This document shows positions 9,851 through 63,998 of a stretch of 64,000 nucleotides of DNA, piece after piece. The stretch lies in the NCBI GenBank assembly GCA_964614665.1, contig CAZTLZ010000001.1, forward strand, positions 563 through 64,562. Direction: 5' to 3'. Position 1 is the first letter of the stretch. The number at the start of each line of letters is the position of its first letter. A program made the translations under genes and the position numbers. The notes below the pieces were generated by a model that was not told the DNA's origin, ran no database searches, and saw nothing but the letters and a program-made list of their open reading frames with translations. The stretch comes from an uncultured Maribacter sp. (GTDB lineage: Bacteria > Bacteroidota > Bacteroidia > Flavobacteriales > Flavobacteriaceae).

Positions 9851-12319
9851 ATGACTCGAGAAGAACTATATCATATTGCCGAATCATGGTTTCAAGAACA
9901 AAGTTGGAAGCCTTTCAAATTTCAAAAAGACACCTGGAAGGCCTTTTTGCAAGGCAAACATGGATTGTTGAACGCACCAACAGGTAGTGGAAAAACATAT
10001 GCACTATGGTTTCCTATTGTTTTAAACTATATCAAAAAAAATCCGCAATATAAAACCGAGCACAGAAAAGGGTTAAAGGCAGTATGGATAACACCCTTAA
10101 GAGCACTTTCAGAAGAAATAAGACAATCAGCAGAACGGGTTACGACTGATTTGGGTACGCAAATGACCGTTGGAATACGCACAGGTGACACTTCGACCAA
10201 AGCGCGGGCCGCAATGAAAAAACAAATGCCTGATTTGCTGATTACAACCCCGGAGAGTTTACAATTGCTATTGGCTTCCAAAGACTATGATAAAATGTTC
10301 AAAGATTGTTCTGCAATCGTTGTTGACGAATGGCATGAACTTCTAGGCACCAAACGGGGAGTACAAATGGAGCTTGCCCTTTCACGATTAAAAACAGTTT
10401 CAAAACAACTGCGTATTTGGGGTATTTCTGCAACAATAGGAAATCTAAATCAGGCCAGAGCCGTACTTCTTGGGCCAGAAACAGCCGCTTTGGACAACTC
10501 CATATTAATCAAAGCGAACATCAAAAAGAAGATAACGGTCAGAAGTATCATCCCTAAAGAAATGGAGACCTTTCCGTGGCGCGGACATCTTGGAATTCGA
10601 TTGTTGGAAGATGTAGTTCCTATTATAAACAACAGCAAAACTACCTTACTTTTCACTAATACCAGAAGTCAATGTGAAATCTGGTTTCAAAAGATTCTAG
10701 AGAAGCATCCTGAATATGCCGGTGAGATCGCCATGCATCACGGAAGCATTAACAAAGAAACCCGCAATTGGGTCGAACAGGCGATTCGAAATGAAAGTTT
10801 AAAAGCGGTGGTGTGTACTTCAAGTTTGGACTTAGGGGTAGATTTTGCTCCCGTAGAGACTGTGATACAAATTGGAGGGCCCAAAGGCGTGGCCCGTTTT
10901 TTACAACGTGCTGGTCGAAGTGGCCACCGACCCGGAAAGGAGAGTGTGATTTACTTCATGCCAACCCATGCTATTGAATTGATAGAGGCTTCCGCATTGC
11001 AACAGGCTGTAAAACAGAATACCGTAGAGGATCGAATACCGTATCTCAACAGTTACGATGTCTTACTACAATATTTGACCACTTTGGCTATCTCCAATGG
11101 ATTTTTTCCAGATGAAATCTATAAAGAAGTTCGACAAACTTTTTGTTATCAAACCTTGACGAAAGACCAATGGCAATGGCTTTTGAACTTTTTGGTAATG
11201 GGCAGTCAGAGCCTGCAATCATATGATGAATACAAAAAAGTAAATGTTGAAGAAGATGGAAAATTCAAAGTCAATGACCGTGGCGTTGCAATGCGACATC
11301 GATTTCAAATAGGCACAATTGTCGGTGATGTTAATCTGACCGTGCGCTATCAAAAAGGGGGATATATTGGCTCCATCGAAGAGTACTTCATTTCCAAACT
11401 CAACAAAGGTGATGTCTTTACTTTTGCCGGGCGGAATCTCGAATTTATTCGAATTAAAGGAATGCAGGTGCATGTTCGAAACTCCACTAAAAGAACCAGT
11501 AGGGTTTCGAGTTGGATGGGCAGTCGTATGACACTCTCAGCGCAGATGTCAAAATTACTACGGGAAGAGTTGTATTCTTCATACGCTGACGAAAAAGAGC
11601 AGTCTCCGGAAATTCGGTCCTTAGCCCAGATCTTTGAAAGGCAACGTCGTGAAAGTATTGTGCCCAAACCGAGTGAATTCTTAATAGAGACATTTAAGAC
11701 CGAAGATGGCTACCACCATATTTTTTATCCTTTCGAAGGTCGATTTGTGCATGAGGCGATGGGTAGTTTGCTCGGTTATCGAATAAGCCTGCTCTCCCCT
11801 ATCACCTTCTCCTTGGCCTTCAATGACTATGGATTCGAGTTACTTTCTGACAAACCGATCGATATGCAACAAGTACTCGATAATGATTTGTTTACCACGG
11901 ATTTTTTATTGGATGATTTGGAGAAAAGTCTAAACGCCACCGAAATGGCCCGCCGCAAGTTTCGTGATATAGCCATTATCAGTGGAATGGTTTTCACGGG
12001 CTACCCAAATAAGGGCATCAAAATGAAGCACTTGCAAAGCAACTCGCAATTACTGTTCGAAGTATTTCGTGATTACGAACCAGAAAACTTGTTGTTTCAA
12101 CAAGCTTTTGTTGAAACCTTTCAACATCAATTGGAAGAAGGAAGGTTACGTCTTTCACTCGAACGCATTGCCACACAGAAAATAGTTTGGAAACAGTGTG
12201 AAAAGGCAACCCCTTTTGCCTTTCCATTAATTACGGATAGGCTAAGTCGTGAAAAACTATCCAGTGAAAGATGGGAAGACCGTATTAAACGTATGGCCGC
12301 AATTTTGATGAAGAAATAA
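9851..12319 (+). CDS. lhr: Ligase-associated DNA damage response DEXH-box helicase (Lhr-core family)
   Basis: APTGSGKT, ITPLRAL, RTGDT, DEWHE, HHGS, SLDLGVD, QRAGRSGH; DEAD-associated C-terminal region. Confidence 0.9.
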   Translation: MTREELYHIAESWFQEQSWKPFKFQKDTWKAFLQGKHGLLNAPTGSGKTYALWFPIVLNYIKKNPQYKTEHRKGLKAVWITPLRALSEEIRQSAERVTTDLGTQMTVGIRTGDTSTKARAAMKKQMPDLLITTPESLQLLLASKDYDKMFKDCSAIVVDEWHELLGTKRGVQMELALSRLKTVSKQLRIWGISATIGNLNQARAVLLGPETAALDNSILIKANIKKKITVRSIIPKEMETFPWRGHLGIRLLEDVVPIINNSKTTLLFTNTRSQCEIWFQKILEKHPEYAGEIAMHHGSINKETRNWVEQAIRNESLKAVVCTSSLDLGVDFAPVETVIQIGGPKGVARFLQRAGRSGHRPGKESVIYFMPTHAIELIEASALQQAVKQNTVEDRIPYLNSYDVLLQYLTTLAISNGFFPDEIYKEVRQTFCYQTLTKDQWQWLLNFLVMGSQSLQSYDEYKKVNVEEDGKFKVNDRGVAMRHRFQIGTIVGDVNLTVRYQKGGYIGSIEEYFISKLNKGDVFTFAGRNLEFIRIKGMQVHVRNSTKRTSRVSSWMGSRMTLSAQMSKLLREELYSSYADEKEQSPEIRSLAQIFERQRRESIVPKPSEFLIETFKTEDGYHHIFYPFEGRFVHEAMGSLLGYRISLLSPITFSLAFNDYGFELLSDKPIDMQQVLDNDLFTTDFLLDDLEKSLNATEMARRKFRDIAIISGMVFTGYPNKGIKMKHLQSNSQLLFEVFRDYEPENLLFQQAFVETFQHQLEEGRLRLSLERIATQKIVWKQCEKATPFAFPLITDRLSREKLSSERWEDRIKRMAAILMKK

Positions 12320-13085: not shown

Positions 13086-16000
13086 TTGACCCAAAGTAGC
13101 ATTCAACAACTGTTTTCACAGTCTCCAAAAACCCGGAAACTGCGACATGCTATTGCCGAATCTGAAAATAGTATTGTTTTAAAAGGTTTAACCGGATCTT
13201 CTCTTTCCTTTGCTTTATCTGATGCTTTTCGAAATTCTTCGACCCCCTTTCTATTGGTTTTTGATGATAAGGAAGAAGCTGCTTATTACCTAAACGATTT
13301 CGAACAACTCGTAGGTTCCAAAGATGTACTATTCTATCCTGGAAGCTATAGACGCCCATATCAAATTGAAGAAACGGATAATGCTAATGTTCTGCTTCGT
13401 GCAGAAGTTCTAAATCGCATTAATTCGCGAAAGAGACCTGCAGTTATTATTACCTATCCAGATGCACTTTTCGAAAAGGTGGTGACCCGAAGGGAATTGG
13501 AAAAAAACACTCTTAAGATAAAACTGGATGATACGCTGTCATTAGACTTTCTAAATGAAGTACTCTTCGAATATCAATTTAAGCGTGTTGATTTCGTTAC
13601 CGAGCCTGGCGAGTTTTCCGTCCGTGGTGGCATCGTAGATGTATTCTCATTCTCACATGACGAACCCTATCGCATAGAGTTTTTTGGAGATGAAGTCGAC
13701 AGTATCAGAACCTTCGATGTGGAAACGCAGCTATCAACTGAAAAGGTAAAGAAAATCAGTATTATTCCCAATGTGGCCAATAAATTCACTGATGAAAAAA
13801 GGGAAAGCTTTTTAAAGTATATTTCTTCCGAGACAATCATTTTCACCAAGAATACGGACTTGCTTTTGGCAAGACTAGACAATTTTTTTGGAAAGGCGGA
13901 AGAGGCTTTTACTAAACTTTCTTCGGTAATAAAGCATGCCAAACCCGAAGAGCTCTTTTTGAGTTCAGATAGTTTCAAAGAACAGTTAAAGGATTTCTTA
14001 CTGTTAAAATCCGGATCTCAACAAGTTCAACTCGAGAATAAAATCGAATTCCTAACAAAGCCCCAACCCTCCTTTAACAAGAAGTTCGACCTGTTGATTG
14101 AAAACCTCAATGGGTACAAAGAACAGGGCTATGCCAATTATATTTTCTGCTCCACCGAGCAACAAGCACAACGCTTTCATGACATTTTTGAAGAAGTTGA
14201 CGAGCAAGTTCACTACAAAACAGTGGTTTTTCCACTATATCAAGGTTTCGTTGACGATGATTTAAAAATCGCCTGCTATACAGATCATCAAATTTTTGAA
14301 CGTTATCATAAATACCATTTAAAAAATGGATACGCCAAGAAACAGGCCATTACTCTTAAGGAACTCAACAAACTTGAAATAGGTGACTATGTTACCCATA
14401 TTGACCATGGCATCGGAAAATTTGGAGGACTCCAAAAAATTGATGTTGAAGGTAAAAAACAAGAAGCCATCAAATTGATGTATGGTGAACGAGACATTTT
14501 ATATGTGAGCATCCACTCACTGCATAAAATCTCTAAGTTCAATGGAAAAGATGGCGCAGTACCTAAAATTTATAAGCTAGGTTCGGCCGCTTGGAAAAAA
14601 ATCAAACAAAAGACCAAATCGAGGGTAAAGAAAATTGCTTTTGACCTTATTAAGGTTTACGCCAAACGCCGATTGGAAAAAGGCTTTCAATATGACCCCG
14701 ATGGCTACCTACAACACGAATTAGAGGCTTCTTTTATTTACGAAGATACCCCTGATCAAAGTAAGGCAACTGAAGATGTCAAAAGAGATATGGAAAGTGA
14801 GCGCCCCATGGATCGGTTGATATGTGGAGATGTTGGATTCGGAAAAACCGAAGTAGCGATAAGGGCGGCTTTCAAAGCCGTTGCAAATGGCAAACAAGTG
14901 GCTGTTTTAGTGCCTACCACTATTCTGGCCTTTCAACACAGCAAAACCTTTAGAGAGCGATTGAAAGATATGCCGGTTACAGTTGATTATTTGAACCGTT
15001 TCCGCACAACCAAAGAACGCCAAGAAACCTTGAAAAAGCTGGAGGCAGGTACGATCGATATTATTATTGGAACTCACCAACTTGTGAACAAAAATGTAAA
15101 ATTCAAAGACCTCGGCCTTTTGATTGTTGATGAAGAGCAGAAGTTTGGTGTTTCGGTCAAAGACAAATTGAAGTCTATAAAAGAAAATGTGGATGTGTTG
15201 ACATTAACCGCGACGCCCATACCTAGAACTTTGCAATTTAGTTTGATGGCCGCCCGTGATTTATCCATCATTAATACCCCTCCCCCGAATCGATACCCTA
15301 TTGAAAGTCAAGTTATACGATTTGGTGAGGAAACCATACGTGATGCTATTATTTATGAGATACAGCGTGGAGGTCAAGTTTTCTATATCCATAACCGTAT
15401 TGAAAATATTAAGGAAGTAGCGGGCATGATTCAACGTCTAGTACCTGATGCCAAAGTAGGCATTGGCCATGGACAGATGGAAGGCAAAAAATTGGAATCC
15501 CTGATGTTGGCCTTTATGAATGGGGAATTCGATGTACTCGTTTCAACGACTATCGTAGAAAGTGGCCTTGATGTTACTAATGCCAATACCATTTTCATCA
15601 ACAATGCCAACAATTTCGGACTAAGTGACTTGCATCAGATGAGGGGTCGTGTGGGGCGTAGTAACAAAAAAGCTTTCTGCTATTTTATTACCCCTGCCTA
15701 TGATGTCATGACACCAGATGCTCGAAAGCGAATTCAAGCTTTAGAACAATTCACCGAATTGGGTAGTGGTTTCAATATCGCTATGAAAGACCTAGAAATA
15801 AGAGGAGCTGGCGATCTACTCGGAGGTGAACAAAGTGGTTTTATCAATGAAATCGGTTTTGATGCCTACCAAAAAATATTGGCTGAGGCCATAGATGAAC
15901 TTAAGGGAAATGAGTTTAAGGAACTCTATAGCGAAGTGGAAGGCCACCAAGAAAAACCCTTTTTAAAAGAGACACTACTAGATTCAGATTTTGAATTGCT

Positions 16001-16454
16001 CTTTCCTGATGATTATATCAACAACATCACCGAACGGTTAAACCTTTATACCCAATTAAATGAGGTCGATTCTGAGGAAAAGCTTAAGACGTATGAGGCT
16101 GAGCTTATTGATCGCTTTGGCGAATTACCAATAGAGGCCGAAGATTTGTTGAATTCTGTACGTATCAAATGGATTGCCAATAGCATCGGACTCGAAAAAG
16201 TGGTAATGAAAAAAGGGAAACTAATAGGTTATTTCATCTCGGATCAACAATCAGAATTCTACCAAAGCGCAACTTTTACGAAAGTGTTACAGTTTGTTCA
16301 GATGAACGCTCAAAAATGCAAAATGAAGGAAAAGCAAACACGAAACGGCCTTCGTTTGTTACTGGTCTTTGAAGAAGTTTTATCTATTCAAAAAGCGCTA
16401 CAGTCGCTAGAACCGTTGGGAGATTTCGGTCATATGAAAGCACAATTTACATAA
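13086..16454 (+). CDS. mfd: Transcription-repair coupling factor
   Basis: UvrB-like N-terminus, HIDHGIGKF RID domain, GDVGFGKTEVA, DEEQKFG, HQMRGRVGRS, DLEIRGAG, TRCF C-terminus. Confidence 0.97.
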   Translation: MTQSSIQQLFSQSPKTRKLRHAIAESENSIVLKGLTGSSLSFALSDAFRNSSTPFLLVFDDKEEAAYYLNDFEQLVGSKDVLFYPGSYRRPYQIEETDNANVLLRAEVLNRINSRKRPAVIITYPDALFEKVVTRRELEKNTLKIKLDDTLSLDFLNEVLFEYQFKRVDFVTEPGEFSVRGGIVDVFSFSHDEPYRIEFFGDEVDSIRTFDVETQLSTEKVKKISIIPNVANKFTDEKRESFLKYISSETIIFTKNTDLLLARLDNFFGKAEEAFTKLSSVIKHAKPEELFLSSDSFKEQLKDFLLLKSGSQQVQLENKIEFLTKPQPSFNKKFDLLIENLNGYKEQGYANYIFCSTEQQAQRFHDIFEEVDEQVHYKTVVFPLYQGFVDDDLKIACYTDHQIFERYHKYHLKNGYAKKQAITLKELNKLEIGDYVTHIDHGIGKFGGLQKIDVEGKKQEAIKLMYGERDILYVSIHSLHKISKFNGKDGAVPKIYKLGSAAWKKIKQKTKSRVKKIAFDLIKVYAKRRLEKGFQYDPDGYLQHELEASFIYEDTPDQSKATEDVKRDMESERPMDRLICGDVGFGKTEVAIRAAFKAVANGKQVAVLVPTTILAFQHSKTFRERLKDMPVTVDYLNRFRTTKERQETLKKLEAGTIDIIIGTHQLVNKNVKFKDLGLLIVDEEQKFGVSVKDKLKSIKENVDVLTLTATPIPRTLQFSLMAARDLSIINTPPPNRYPIESQVIRFGEETIRDAIIYEIQRGGQVFYIHNRIENIKEVAGMIQRLVPDAKVGIGHGQMEGKKLESLMLAFMNGEFDVLVSTTIVESGLDVTNANTIFINNANNFGLSDLHQMRGRVGRSNKKAFCYFITPAYDVMTPDARKRIQALEQFTELGSGFNIAMKDLEIRGAGDLLGGEQSGFINEIGFDAYQKILAEAIDELKGNEFKELYSEVEGHQEKPFLKETLLDSDFELLFPDDYINNITERLNLYTQLNEVDSEEKLKTYEAELIDRFGELPIEAEDLLNSVRIKWIANSIGLEKVVMKKGKLIGYFISDQQSEFYQSATFTKVLQFVQMNAQKCKMKEKQTRNGLRLLLVFEEVLSIQKALQSLEPLGDFGHMKAQFT

Positions 16455-24611: not shown

Positions 24612-24659
24612 AAAGCCTTCGCACCTGTGCCTCGAGTAACTGCGAAGGCTTTCTTTTTT
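24612..24659 (+). terminator. Intrinsic terminator of the DUF1800-DUF1501 operon
   Basis: Perfect 12-bp inverted repeat AAAGCCTTCGCA/TGCGAAGGCTTT followed by CTTTTTT. Confidence 0.85.
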
Positions 24660-24716
24660 GGTCATTTCAAGAAGCCTCCCCATAAAAATCTTTATTTTTG
24701 GGGCTTAAATTCTTTT

Positions 24717-26816
24717 ATGTCTCAAACACAAATAAAACCAGATAGGTACACCATCACCGCAGCATTACCCTATACCAATGGTCCGATTCATATCGGGCAC
24801 TTGGCAGGAGTATATGTCCCTGCAGATATATACACGCGTTATTTACGGTTGACGGGTAATGACGTAGCTTTTGTTTGTGGAAGTGATGAGCATGGTGTGG
24901 CCATTTCAATGAAGGCCAAAAAGGAAGGGGTAACCCCAACAGAGATTATTGATAAATACGACGGTATTATTCGCCGATCATTTCAAGAATTCGGAATAAC
25001 ATTCGATAACTATTCTCGTACTTCTCGAGAAATCCACCATAGAACTGCCGGTGACTTTTTCAAAAAATTACATGAACAAGGAGATTTTCTAGAAGAGACC
25101 ACAGCTCAATTATATGATGAGGAAGCGAACCAATTTTTGGCCGATCGCTTTGTTGTGGGCACCTGCCCAAATTGTGGTTATGAAGAAGCTTATGGCGATC
25201 AATGTGAGAATTGTGGAGCGTCATTGAATGCGATGGATTTGATAAATCCAAAGTCGACGATTACGGGAAGCATTCCAACTACAAAAGAAACCAAGCACTG
25301 GTTTTTACCCTTGGATAAACACGAAGATTTTTTAAGGGAATGGATTTTGAGCGGGCATAAATCAGATTGGAAATCTAATGTTTATGGCCAATGTAAAAGC
25401 TGGATCGATGCCGGATTAAAGCCAAGGGCGGTCACTCGTGATTTGGACTGGGGAATTCCAGTACCCGTAAAAGGCGGCGAAGGAAAGGTATTATATGTAT
25501 GGTTCGATGCCCCAATAGGATACATTTCTTCTACCAAAGAATGGGCAGAGCGAGAAGAAAAAGATTGGGAACCCTATTGGAAAGATGAAGGCACCAAATT
25601 GGTTCATTTCATAGGTAAGGATAATATCGTTTTTCATTGTATCATCTTCCCAGCAATTCTAAAAGCGCATGGGGGTTATATTCTGCCCGAAAATGTACCG
25701 GCCAATGAATTCTTGAACCTAGAAGGTAATAAATTGTCCACTTCCAAAAACTGGGCCGTATGGCTACATGAGTATTTGGAAGAATTTCCGGATATGCAAG
25801 ATGTATTACGATATACATTGACTGCAAATGCCCCAGAAACCAAAGACAACGACTTCACATGGAAAGATTTTCAGGCCCGTAACAACAATGAACTTGTTGC
25901 GATTTTAGGAAACTTCATCAACCGGGTGGTTGTCCTTACCAACAAATATTATGATGGGCAAGTACCGGTTGCAGGAGATTTTTCAAAAGTAGATTCAGAC
26001 ACTTTAGAACAACTTCGCAAATACCCAGAAATTATCTCGAGCTCCATAGAACGGTACCGTTTTCGTGAAGCCAGCCAAGAGCTAATGAATTTAGCGCGTC
26101 TTGGTAATAAATATCTAGCAGACGAAGAACCCTGGAAGGTTATTAAAGAAGATGAAGAGCGGGTAAAGACCATTATGTTCGTAGCCCTTCAAATCGCTAC
26201 CGGTTTAGCAATTTTAAGTGAACCCTTTTTGCCTTTTACCTCTAACAAACTTAAATCAATTCTTTCGGTCACATCGAGCGGAGTCGATATGCAATGGAAC
26301 AATGTTTCAACTAGCGAAATCCTGCTACCCCCAGTCCACCGAATCAACAAAGCAGAACTCCTATTCAGAAAAATAGAAGATACAGAAATACAAGCGCAAC
26401 TTGACAAATTAGAAGCCACAAAAAAAGCTAATGCTTCGACTTCGCTCAGTACAAACTCTACAAACAAAGAACTCATGCCTCAAAAAGACACCATTACCTT
26501 CGACGACTTCACAAAATTGGATATGCGAGTAGGCACTATTTTGGAAGCGGAAAAAATGCCCAAAACCGACAAGCTAATGGTTATGCAAGTCGATACTGGT
26601 TTGGACACTCGTACTATCGTATCTGGTATTGCCGAACATTTTACCTCCGAAGAGCTAATCGGCAGAAAAGTTACGGTACTTATAAACTTGGCGCCAAGAA
26701 AATTACGTGGGGTCGAAAGTCAGGGCATGATTCTATTGGCCGAAGGTGCCGATGGCAAATTGGTGTTTGTCAACCCTGATGAAGATGGTGTTGGAAATGG
26801 CAGAACTATAAATTGA
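24717..26816 (+). CDS. metG: Methionine--tRNA ligase with C-terminal tRNA-binding domain
   Basis: [23 protein letters not shown] zinc knuckle, YVWFDA, KLSTS, C-terminal [14 protein letters not shown]. Confidence 0.97.
26268..26291 (+). repeat. REP-like short palindrome, copy A (in-frame within metG)
   Basis: GTCACATCGAGCGGAGTCGATATG; shares the core GAGCGNAGTCGA with copies B and C. Confidence 0.65.
26433..26456 (-). repeat. REP-like short palindrome, copy B (in-frame within metG, inverted relative to A)
   Basis: Minus strand reads GTTTGTACTGAGCGAAGTCGAAGC. Confidence 0.65.
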
Positions 26817-63806: not shown

Positions 63807-63834
63807 TGACCGCATGTCTTTGTGAACGGCTAAT

Positions 63835-63858
63835 GTCAGTCTGATCGCAGTCGAAGAC
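63835..63858 (+). repeat. REP-like short palindrome, copy C (intergenic, between convergent genes)
   Basis: GTCAGTCTGATCGCAGTCGAAGAC; GTCT/AGAC stem, core similar to the metG copies. Confidence 0.65.
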
Positions 63859-63860
63859 GC

Positions 63861-63998
63861 TTAATCGTCAGAATTAGGTTTGTATTTATAATGGGTACAA
63901 TTTCTGCATTCCGCCAGTTCTTGAATAGTAATGAAATCATCATTGATAAGGGCAATCTTTTTCGCTCTGCTCGAACCCTTTATTTGCTTCTCGAACAG
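63861..63998 (-). CDS. Hypothetical protein, 3' end only (truncated by window edge)
   Basis: Open minus frame LFEKQIKGSSRAKKIALINDDFITIQELAECRNCTHYKYKPNSDD*. Confidence 0.5.
   Translation of the reverse strand: MFEKQIKGSSRAKKIALINDDFITIQELAECRNCTHYKYKPNSDD

Follow-up and report, generated by a model that had tools for sequence, protein, structure and literature searches.

Hairpin repeats probably inserted in-frame at two tolerant sites of the methionine--tRNA ligase gene in a Maribacter sp., with a small GIY-YIG companion gene

The sequence analyzed in this study was a 64,000-nucleotide stretch of an uncultured Maribacter sp. (assembly GCA_964614665.1, contig CAZTLZ010000001.1, positions 563 to 64,562; hereafter the window), in which the methionine--tRNA ligase gene metG contains two copies of a short palindromic repeat and a third copy is located next to a small gene for a GIY-YIG nuclease (Table 1). 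The metG open reading frame (ORF) spans positions 24627-26816, and its likely start is at 24717. Both metG copies of the 12-nt core GAGCGNAGTCGA were found within this ORF, one on each strand. The forward copy at site 1 lies in the peptide ...SVTSSGVDM... and the reverse copy at site 2 in the peptide ...ASTSLSTNS..., while the third core carries one mismatch and is intergenic. Unit 3 occupies the 54-nt spacer between two convergent genes. The original prediction, which was made from the window alone, had described the same two metG cores, the same peptides and the intergenic copy, and all of these were reproduced when the coordinates and translations were re-checked. It had also described the repeat as a 24-nt imperfect palindrome; the true unit was found to consist of a tag and a short stem that encloses a conserved loop of 12 nt.

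Table 1. Positions of the repeat units and of the two associated genes in the window
Feature	Position	Strand	Core	Description
metG (methionine--tRNA ligase)	24717..26816	+		699 aa from MSQTQ; hosts repeat units 1 and 2
Repeat unit 1 (site 1, aa 517-525)	26267..26292	+	GAGCGGAGTCGA, 26276-26287 (+)	GGTC degenerate tag, A-CATC, core, TATG-C
Repeat unit 2 (site 2, aa 573-579)	26433..26453	-	GAGCGAAGTCGA, 26436-26447 (-)	21-nt block; plus-strand reading A-S-T-S-L-S-T
Repeat unit 3	63834..63859	+	GATCGCAGTCGA, 63843-63854 (+)	intergenic, intact: TGTC-AGTCT-core-AGAC
Small GIY-YIG nuclease gene (Ssn-like), 3' part, 45 codons	63861..64000	-		cut by the window end; translation ...FEKQIKGSSRAKKIALINDDFITIQELAECRNCTHYKYKPNSDD

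The window was compared with 80 metG loci from Maribacter, Zobellia, Flagellimonas/Muricauda, Arenibacter and related genera (about 22 kb each, one genome per species, 1.6 Mb in total; MetG identity 78-86%). The strict core occurred 59 times in these loci, against a calculated chance expectation of less than one, and the core at up to two mismatches with at least four of five paired flank positions gave 79 matches, compared with two in shuffled sequence. Complementarity at four or more of the five flank positions was present in 49 of 61 strict cores, as in a short hairpin-forming inverted repeat. Each unit consists of TGTC, a 5-nt arm starting with A or C, the sequence GAGCG(C>G,A,T)AGTCGA, an arm complementary to the first and often a C, which together form a 5-bp variable stem around a near-invariant 12-nt loop. 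The arms fell into recurrent subfamilies (AGGTC/GACCT, ACTTC/GAAGT, ACCCT/AGGG, AGTCT/AGAC and ACATC/GATGT). The family consensus began with nTGTC-A/C-nnn, and GTC was found in 29 of 34 aligned units (28 TGTC and one CGTC). In the window, the tag reads TGTCA in unit 3 and GGTCA in unit 1, and the trailing C is present in many of the relatives' copies. Stem covariation was seen in the 34-unit alignment, but this observation was circular because those units had been selected on pairing, and it was therefore repeated on units selected by their core, as described below.

Outside metG, 34 units were intergenic and 4 were genic (89% intergenic) in sequence of which 85% was predicted to be genic, and many of these units were located just 3' of a stop codon. 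The motif was thus over-represented in the related loci, which the original prediction had named as a test, and it was biased towards intergenic DNA. An inverted pair of units, approximately 45 nt apart, starts 27 nt past the metG stop codon in five Flagellimonas-type loci (L022, at 12095-12173, L040, L042, L062 and L069). These pairs could fold into long hairpins. No pair of this kind follows metG in the window.

We first expected the resemblance of the two metG copies to be a coincidence, in which an 11-of-12 inverted match had arisen by accident between unrelated coding stretches of low complexity. This looked plausible from the window alone because the similarity ends at the 12-mer, with 18 of 44 positions matching in the best register, and because comparable inverted pairs are common locally: 22 of similar quality were found in the 1.1-kb region around the metG copies. 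The pattern was also a post-hoc one; the core at up to one mismatch gave three matches in the window versus 0.30 expected, and none of 100 shuffles reached three, with a pattern that had been picked after the data were seen. However, the family counts given above refuted a coincidence, as did the window matches of covariance model R1, which was trained on 34 units located outside metG in other genomes. The top three matches of this model, derived from intergenic copies elsewhere, were exactly the three sites already noted, namely unit 3 as the best match (63833-63864, 30.7 bits, E 3.9e-6), unit 1 (26266-26297, 24.3 bits, E 2.4e-4) and unit 2 (26434-26449 on the minus strand, E 0.028), and the next best match had an E value of 1.5. 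Moreover, the core with its tag and paired flanks was present at both orthologous positions in many genera. Taken together, a chance match is practically untenable.

A general window scan for a YGTCA tag followed by a hairpin with 6 or more perfectly paired positions gave three matches versus zero to three in shuffles and revealed no hidden further families. A search with Rfam at gathering thresholds, covering the window and three unit-rich loci, returned only one tRNA and no matching repeat family. A full-text literature search with the core sequence retrieved only unrelated papers, apparently through oligonucleotide or construct sequences. When viral contigs were scanned for TGTC-N5-core, 24 matches were found on 23 contigs, which is near the estimated chance number. 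At least four of five flank positions were paired in 11 of the 24, so that some of them are genuine units, including in DNA of 63-66% GC. Perfect units of the form TGTC-ATCCC-GAGCGCAGTCGA-GGGAT-C were present on three IMG/VR contigs classed as viral (L162, L176 and L178; GC 0.63-0.66), which indicates that the exact 12-nt core is not confined to Flavobacteriaceae.

The window MetG was 86% identical to the Maribacter and Zobellia proteins and contained the Pfam domains tRNA-synt_1g (residues 12-404), Anticodon_3 (416-565) and tRNA_bind (603-690). Compared with the Pyrococcus abyssi methionyl-tRNA synthetase (MetRS) structure 1RQG, site 1 falls in the loop that follows the final anticodon-domain helix, with three more residues in the window protein, and site 2 falls in the unaligned linker preceding the C-terminal tRNA-binding domain. 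An AlphaFold (AF2) model of the MetRS had a mean predicted local distance difference test score (pLDDT) of 90. In this model, site 1 forms a coil after the helix of residues 506-515, and the block has a pLDDT of 89 and then 77. Site 2 is found where the helix of residues 555-578 ends, and it extends into residues 577-590, which have a pLDDT below 50. The length of MetG also varies across Bacteroidota in both regions. According to the model, both insertion sites are a loop or a linker of MetRS that is tolerant of extra residues; the earlier assignment of both coding copies to low-complexity parts of the anticodon domain and linker agrees with this mapping.

At site 2, the comparison of orthologs revealed filled and empty alleles. 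Among the 81 orthologs, the window included here and in the counts below, site 2 was empty in 57, where the linker reads TKKAN-E-NxNKELM, and the linker was 7-8 residues longer in 19. Thirteen, including the window, carried TCGACTNCGCTC at up to two mismatches, always in reverse and in the same frame. The difference is clean in two sister pairs: L001 has 24 nt (ACTTCGGCTGCGCTCGGCACAGGC) between AAT and GAG, whereas L008 lacks the block, and L040 has 21 nt more than L069. The residue that differs between filled alleles (S/A/P/T) corresponds to the degenerate N in the core, and the stems covary (TGCT/AGCA, TACT/AGTA and CGCT/AGCG). On a MetG neighbor-joining tree, which was built with both sites masked and carries no support values, filled and empty alleles were interleaved, a pattern that calls for more than one gain, precise loss or recombination event. 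From these alignments, site 2 is an insertion of 21-24 nt. The statement in the original prediction that MetG orthologs are shorter at this site was borne out, as 57 of the 81 are shorter by 7-8 residues through the clean 24- or 21-nt block that bears the core.

Site 1 showed a more complex history. The window sequence GGTCA-CATC-core-TATG-C is a slightly decayed unit, the perfect form of which is found in L075 as GTCACATC-GAGCGGAGTCGA-GATGTC. A forward core at up to two mismatches was present at site 1 in 25 of the 81 orthologs; the stem subfamilies were scattered over the MetG neighbor-joining tree, and intact units with covarying stems occurred in many genera. Eight orthologs are shorter here by 3-4 residues, as are distant Bacteroidota MetG proteins and the P. 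abyssi MetRS. The same core was found in another frame (frame b, encoding TERSRS) in L026, L031 and L079, while unit 1 of the window is translated in frame a as V-T-S-S-G-V-D-M. In other orthologs, site 1 holds a reverse 24-nt unit (STSTALGTG) or the TGTCATTCTGAGCAATGCGAAGAATC unit in reverse, and in L028, L041, L050, L055 and L073 it holds a classical CGTC repetitive extragenic palindrome (REP), CGTCATGCTGAACTTGATTCAGCATC, which has an 8-bp stem and a 5-nt loop and is read in-frame as RHAELDSAS. A site-1 insertion of about 60 nt was observed in L008, L011, L030 and L057, with peptides such as LNEEGNDEVISQEIATAHKNSPRKDS; given its GTCATTGCGAG-like arms, it looks like another repeat family. Insertions were also nested in the loop of a resident unit, namely a reverse 24-nt unit in L005 and L040 and an unrelated 21-nt hairpin in L042, and each of them split the loop at GAGC(G)^(C)AGTCGA. 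The same peptides were found in a larger MetG protein set.

Site 1 is thus an old hot spot, and its insertion is common to many genera rather than recent. The original prediction had proposed that a repeat family is colonizing coding sequence in this lineage and that a MetG alignment would reveal the indels. The alignment did reveal them at both sites, site 1 additionally showing other repeats or the core in a different frame or orientation, and the orthologs supported insertion; what had to be revised is the age of site 1. Tentatively, the metG copies may be not relics but units kept intact across genera by selection or nuclease-driven conversion, with site 1 as a landing pad for loop insertion at GAGCG^CAGTCGA, although we consider this possible rather than likely. 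If true, the orthologs would be natural evidence of how Ssn-type nucleases move or convert repeats, and of a hairpin-loop target.

The manner in which the units are conserved was assessed at the DNA and protein levels. For site 1, units were selected by their core only and not by pairing; 79.4% of the stem cells were paired, whereas shuffles gave 56.0% and slid controls 30-48%, and 50 double-sided stem changes were counted versus 19 expected. Codon usage was examined in 20 orthologs conditioned on the peptide S[AG]V[ED] only, an earlier version having been conditioned on intact cores. The Val codon was GTC in 17 of the 20 (background in the gene region 17%), the Ala codon was GCA in 14 of 17 (background 27%) and the Ser codon was AGC in 18 of 20. 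By comparison, the pairwise identity among 16 of these taxa at 35 fourfold sites elsewhere in the C-terminal 270 codons ranged from 0.22 to 0.68, and the mean over all 36 fourfold sites, with the unit's own Val included, was 0.37, which is near saturation. The frozen synonymous codons and the core-selected pairing, set against saturated fourfold sites, indicate that the units are kept as nucleotide sequence. This could be due to selection, to conversion from other copies or to re-insertion.

These results bear directly on an explanation at the protein level, in which the Ser/Thr/Ala-rich peptides are a selected linker and the DNA similarity is a by-product. Both sites are indeed low-complexity loops, and similar peptides (SSAVE and STALST) are kept in many orthologs. 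However, one and the same core is read as S-A-V-E, as E-R-S-R-S or, reversed, as S-T-A-L-S in different orthologs, so that different frames and orientations are translated at the same sites. Synonymous sites are frozen while fourfold sites in the rest of the gene are saturated, the 25-nt units are also found unchanged in intergenic DNA, and the amino acids vary exactly at the degenerate position of the core. We therefore regard a selected linker as very improbable.

Conservation at the DNA level would also be expected if the metG copies were selected functional cis-elements instead of passengers, either as a long-range mRNA helix of the inverted cores that would affect translation of the C-terminal domain or as protected or targeted sites of a single-stranded DNA nuclease. 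Unit sequence and stem complementarity are conserved at the DNA level within a coding region, and the isolated 212-nt RNA of positions 26256-26467 folds in silico so that the two cores pair in the 12-bp helix that closes it (minimum free energy -37.7 kcal/mol, z -2.3). On the other hand, forward site-1 and reverse site-2 cores occur together in only 6 of the 81 orthologs, a large number of orthologs lack both cores or harbor unrelated repeats at site 1, and the window's own copies are partly decayed. The conservation is explained equally well by conversion from other copies or by re-insertion, and ribosomes would unwind a helix within the translated region. A cis-acting function is accordingly unlikely, though it deserves some weight. 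A regulatory mRNA helix as the main explanation was rejected, given the 6 of 81 orthologs and the position of the helix in translated sequence, and was rated a side effect. Pairing of the inverted copies in the mRNA, which had been raised in the original prediction, is physically possible, but the arrangement that it needs is rare.

The gene adjoining unit 3 was recognized by its last 45 residues (...FEKQIKGSSRAKKIALINDDF...ECRNCTHYKYK) as encoding a small GIY-YIG protein. It is one of the two convergent genes, and its stop codon lies 2 nt from the unit. Full-length homologues have 102-107 residues and contain PF01541 only, and a search with NCBIfam gave no name for the protein. A unit within a few nucleotides 3' of the stop codon and in the opposite orientation was found in the window and in L027, L030, L036, L081-L083 and L184, that is, in 8 of 8 close homologues, and L184 and L027 also have an inverted unit upstream of the gene. 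The original prediction had suggested a search for a cognate mobilizer gene of the RAYT or GIY-YIG type flanked by the repeat, and the GIY-YIG gene is a candidate for it. We also examined 76 more distant GIY-YIG homologues from metagenomes (GC 28-70%) using the generalized core GAGC-N2-6-YCGA. In 33 of the 76, this core followed the stop codon at a distance of no more than 80 nt, compared with 5.3% of control windows.

Several further features were observed around these genes. In six metagenome loci (L086, L093-L096 and L116), the TGA of a forward unit (cTGAGCGNAGTCGAA, cTGAGCG) serves as the stop codon, and the gene ends within its own repeat. Short tandem arrays directly follow the GIY-YIG gene in L085 and L086. 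In the Maribacter-type loci L184 (970-3324) and L027 (17285-18393), the gene lies directly downstream of ssb, which encodes the single-stranded DNA-binding protein; recQ follows it in L184, and the copy in L027 is frameshifted.

The established partner of palindromic repeats is the RAYT transposase, and the units could instead be classical REPs spread by an IS200/IS605-type RAYT encoded elsewhere in the genome, with the GIY-YIG neighbor unrelated to them. The view of the source genome is 64 kb, and the link between the GIY-YIG gene and the units was drawn from gene context, which leaves some room for this explanation. However, a Y1 transposase domain (PF01797, RAYT) was absent from the 20 window ORFs scanned, which were small or mid-sized (114-227 aa), and the tag is TGTC and not the GTAG of RAYT-linked REPs (PMC3733652). 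Furthermore, a unit stands at the stop codon in all eight close GIY-YIG homologues, with inverted units on both sides in L184 and L027, and an association between GIY-YIG genes and repeats is described for the wider family (PMC11893778). RAYT-driven spread is accordingly improbable.

To place the units among known systems, we compared them with several groups of repeats. According to Chenal et al. 2025 (PMC11893778), Ssn proteins are small single-domain GIY-YIG enzymes that bind the hairpins of Ssn-related motifs (SRMs) as single-stranded DNA and cut just upstream of them; the Neisseria NTS (dRS3) CGTCATTCCCGCGMAVGCGGGAATCYRG is the type of the SRMs, an SRM is found in the flanks of 71% of Ssn genes, and 2% of NTS copies are intragenic. 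The authors also note an IS-like NTS-ssnA-NTS layout and raise a role in repeat expansion only as a hypothesis. The units described here resemble SRM/NTS elements in being short (20-50 nt) oriented hairpins with a 5' (C/T)GTC-A tag, an A...T-closed stem and a C past the stem, in being mostly intergenic, and in lying beside a single-domain GIY-YIG gene (about 100 aa), on one flank or, inverted, on both (L184 and L027). They differ in having a 5-bp, subfamily-variable stem and a conserved 12-nt loop where the SRM has an 8-bp conserved stem and a 4-nt loop, and, relative to the consulted sections of that paper, in their Flavobacteriaceae host and recurrent in-frame insertions. The published SRM pattern matched only 6 of 80 GIY-YIG-centered loci (L081-L160), among them L101, whose 44%-identical GIY-YIG homologue has a near-canonical NTS at a distance of 215 nt. 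The pattern matched none of four unit sequences (three idealized subfamily forms and unit 1 of the window), nor did it match the CGTC-type REP of site 1.

The CGTC/TGTC-tagged REPs were classified by Di Nocera, De Gregorio and Rocco in 2013, who listed intragenic copies, including some in tRNA synthetase and repair genes, and equated the Rickettsia elements RPE-4 and RPE-6 with CGTC REPs (PMC3733652). The units share with these REPs the terminal TGTC tag, a stem that opens with A...T, a location just 3' of genes, head-to-head dimers and occasional intragenic copies, whereas the REP stems are 8-9 bp and the loops 4-5 nt, compared with 5 bp and 12 nt here (PMC3733652). The true CGTC REP found at site 1 of five other loci is not the unit of the window.

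Like the Rickettsia palindromic elements (RPEs), the units are palindromic repeats that interrupt housekeeping proteins in-frame at surface positions where this is tolerated. The present insertions are much shorter (21-27 nt), belong to another phylum and have other sequences, and the host is presumably a free-living marine bacterium, judging by its Maribacter- and Zobellia-like relatives, and not an obligate intracellular one. The units also resemble REP/BIME-RAYT systems, with their short intergenic hairpins, inverted pairs and repeat-flanked enzyme gene (REPtron-like), but the companion is a GIY-YIG nuclease and not an HUH/Y1 transposase, and the GTAG tag is lacking. They differ from miniature inverted-repeat transposable elements in length (21-27 nt versus 70-300 bp) and in the absence of a duplication at the clean indels. 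Intragenic CGTC/TGTC-type REPs and Rickettsia RPEs are already known, and the metG case belongs to the same kind.

A further gene with in-frame units was observed in Flagellimonas. The loci L050 (798-851, GASTPLSPQNLDETVTERSRSD) and L042 (1087-1152, VTSSAVEKQTEASPSTVLGK) carry in-frame inverted unit pairs in a variable loop of a putative mfd gene, a transcription-repair coupling factor by the look of its sequence, and relatives such as L053 have the gene without units. The 1122-aa window ORF at 13086-16454, which is provisionally its counterpart by size alone, contains no unit. The putative mfd gene may thus be a second host of in-frame units that behaves in the same manner as metG.

Considering all of these results, we conclude that the metG motifs are very probably CGTC/TGTC-tagged, SRM-like hairpin repeats of the REP type that were inserted in-frame at two tolerant places. 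The units normally reside in intergenic spacers 3' of genes, often as inverted pairs, and also flank small GIY-YIG genes. They would have entered metG at site 1 in the forward orientation, in the anticodon-domain loop, and at site 2 in reverse, in the disordered linker. Their persistence may be explained by lengths that are multiples of three and by stop-free frames, with translation into short Ser/Thr/Ala/Leu-rich peptides; in an essential gene, survival would be expected only for units that add 21, 24 or 27 nt and are read in a frame free of stop codons. By analogy with the published Ssn/NTS work, the GIY-YIG protein may bind the unit as single-stranded DNA and nick beside it. These nicks, or else repair that uses other copies as the template, may drive the insertion of units, the replacement of stem subfamilies and homogenization.

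A number of observations weigh against this conclusion. The stems of both metG copies are degraded (three of five pairs), unit 1 is without a closing A-T pair and a trailing C, and the window holds three copies only, the abundance of the family having been shown for relatives and not for the source organism. The true empty state of site 1 is ambiguous, as the short alleles could be secondary deletions, and the patchy distribution at site 2 fits repeated insertion, precise loss or recombination alike. At the clean site-2 indels, neither a target-site duplication nor another mark of a defined transposition mechanism was found. As regards the putative placement of the GIY-YIG protein in the Ssn clade (CDD cd10448), its closest solved structures are the UPF0213 proteins 1ZG2 and 1YWL. 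Finally, the SRM pattern HGTCWYN(0-2)YYVSBRHN(0-5)WNVSBRGN(0-2)RNCYNB, as published (PMC11893778), had no match in the window and three in the 1.6 Mb of relatives.

Read in this way, the locus would represent an essential translation enzyme that carries selfish hairpin repeats in-frame outside the Rickettsia case, and one of its loops would have been struck repeatedly across genera by several repeat families. The findings extend the pairing of a small GIY-YIG nuclease with a hairpin repeat to marine Flavobacteriaceae. The repeat class, with its GAGC...TCGA core and 12-nt loop, appears to be common and is missed by the SRM pattern, yet it accompanies 33 of the 76 sampled GIY-YIG homologues. The nested insertions and the frozen synonymous sites offer testable hints on how the repeats spread. 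For annotation, the family would account for the recurring SSAVE, TSTALSTG and TERSRS peptides in flavobacterial proteins, as well as for spurious small ORFs.

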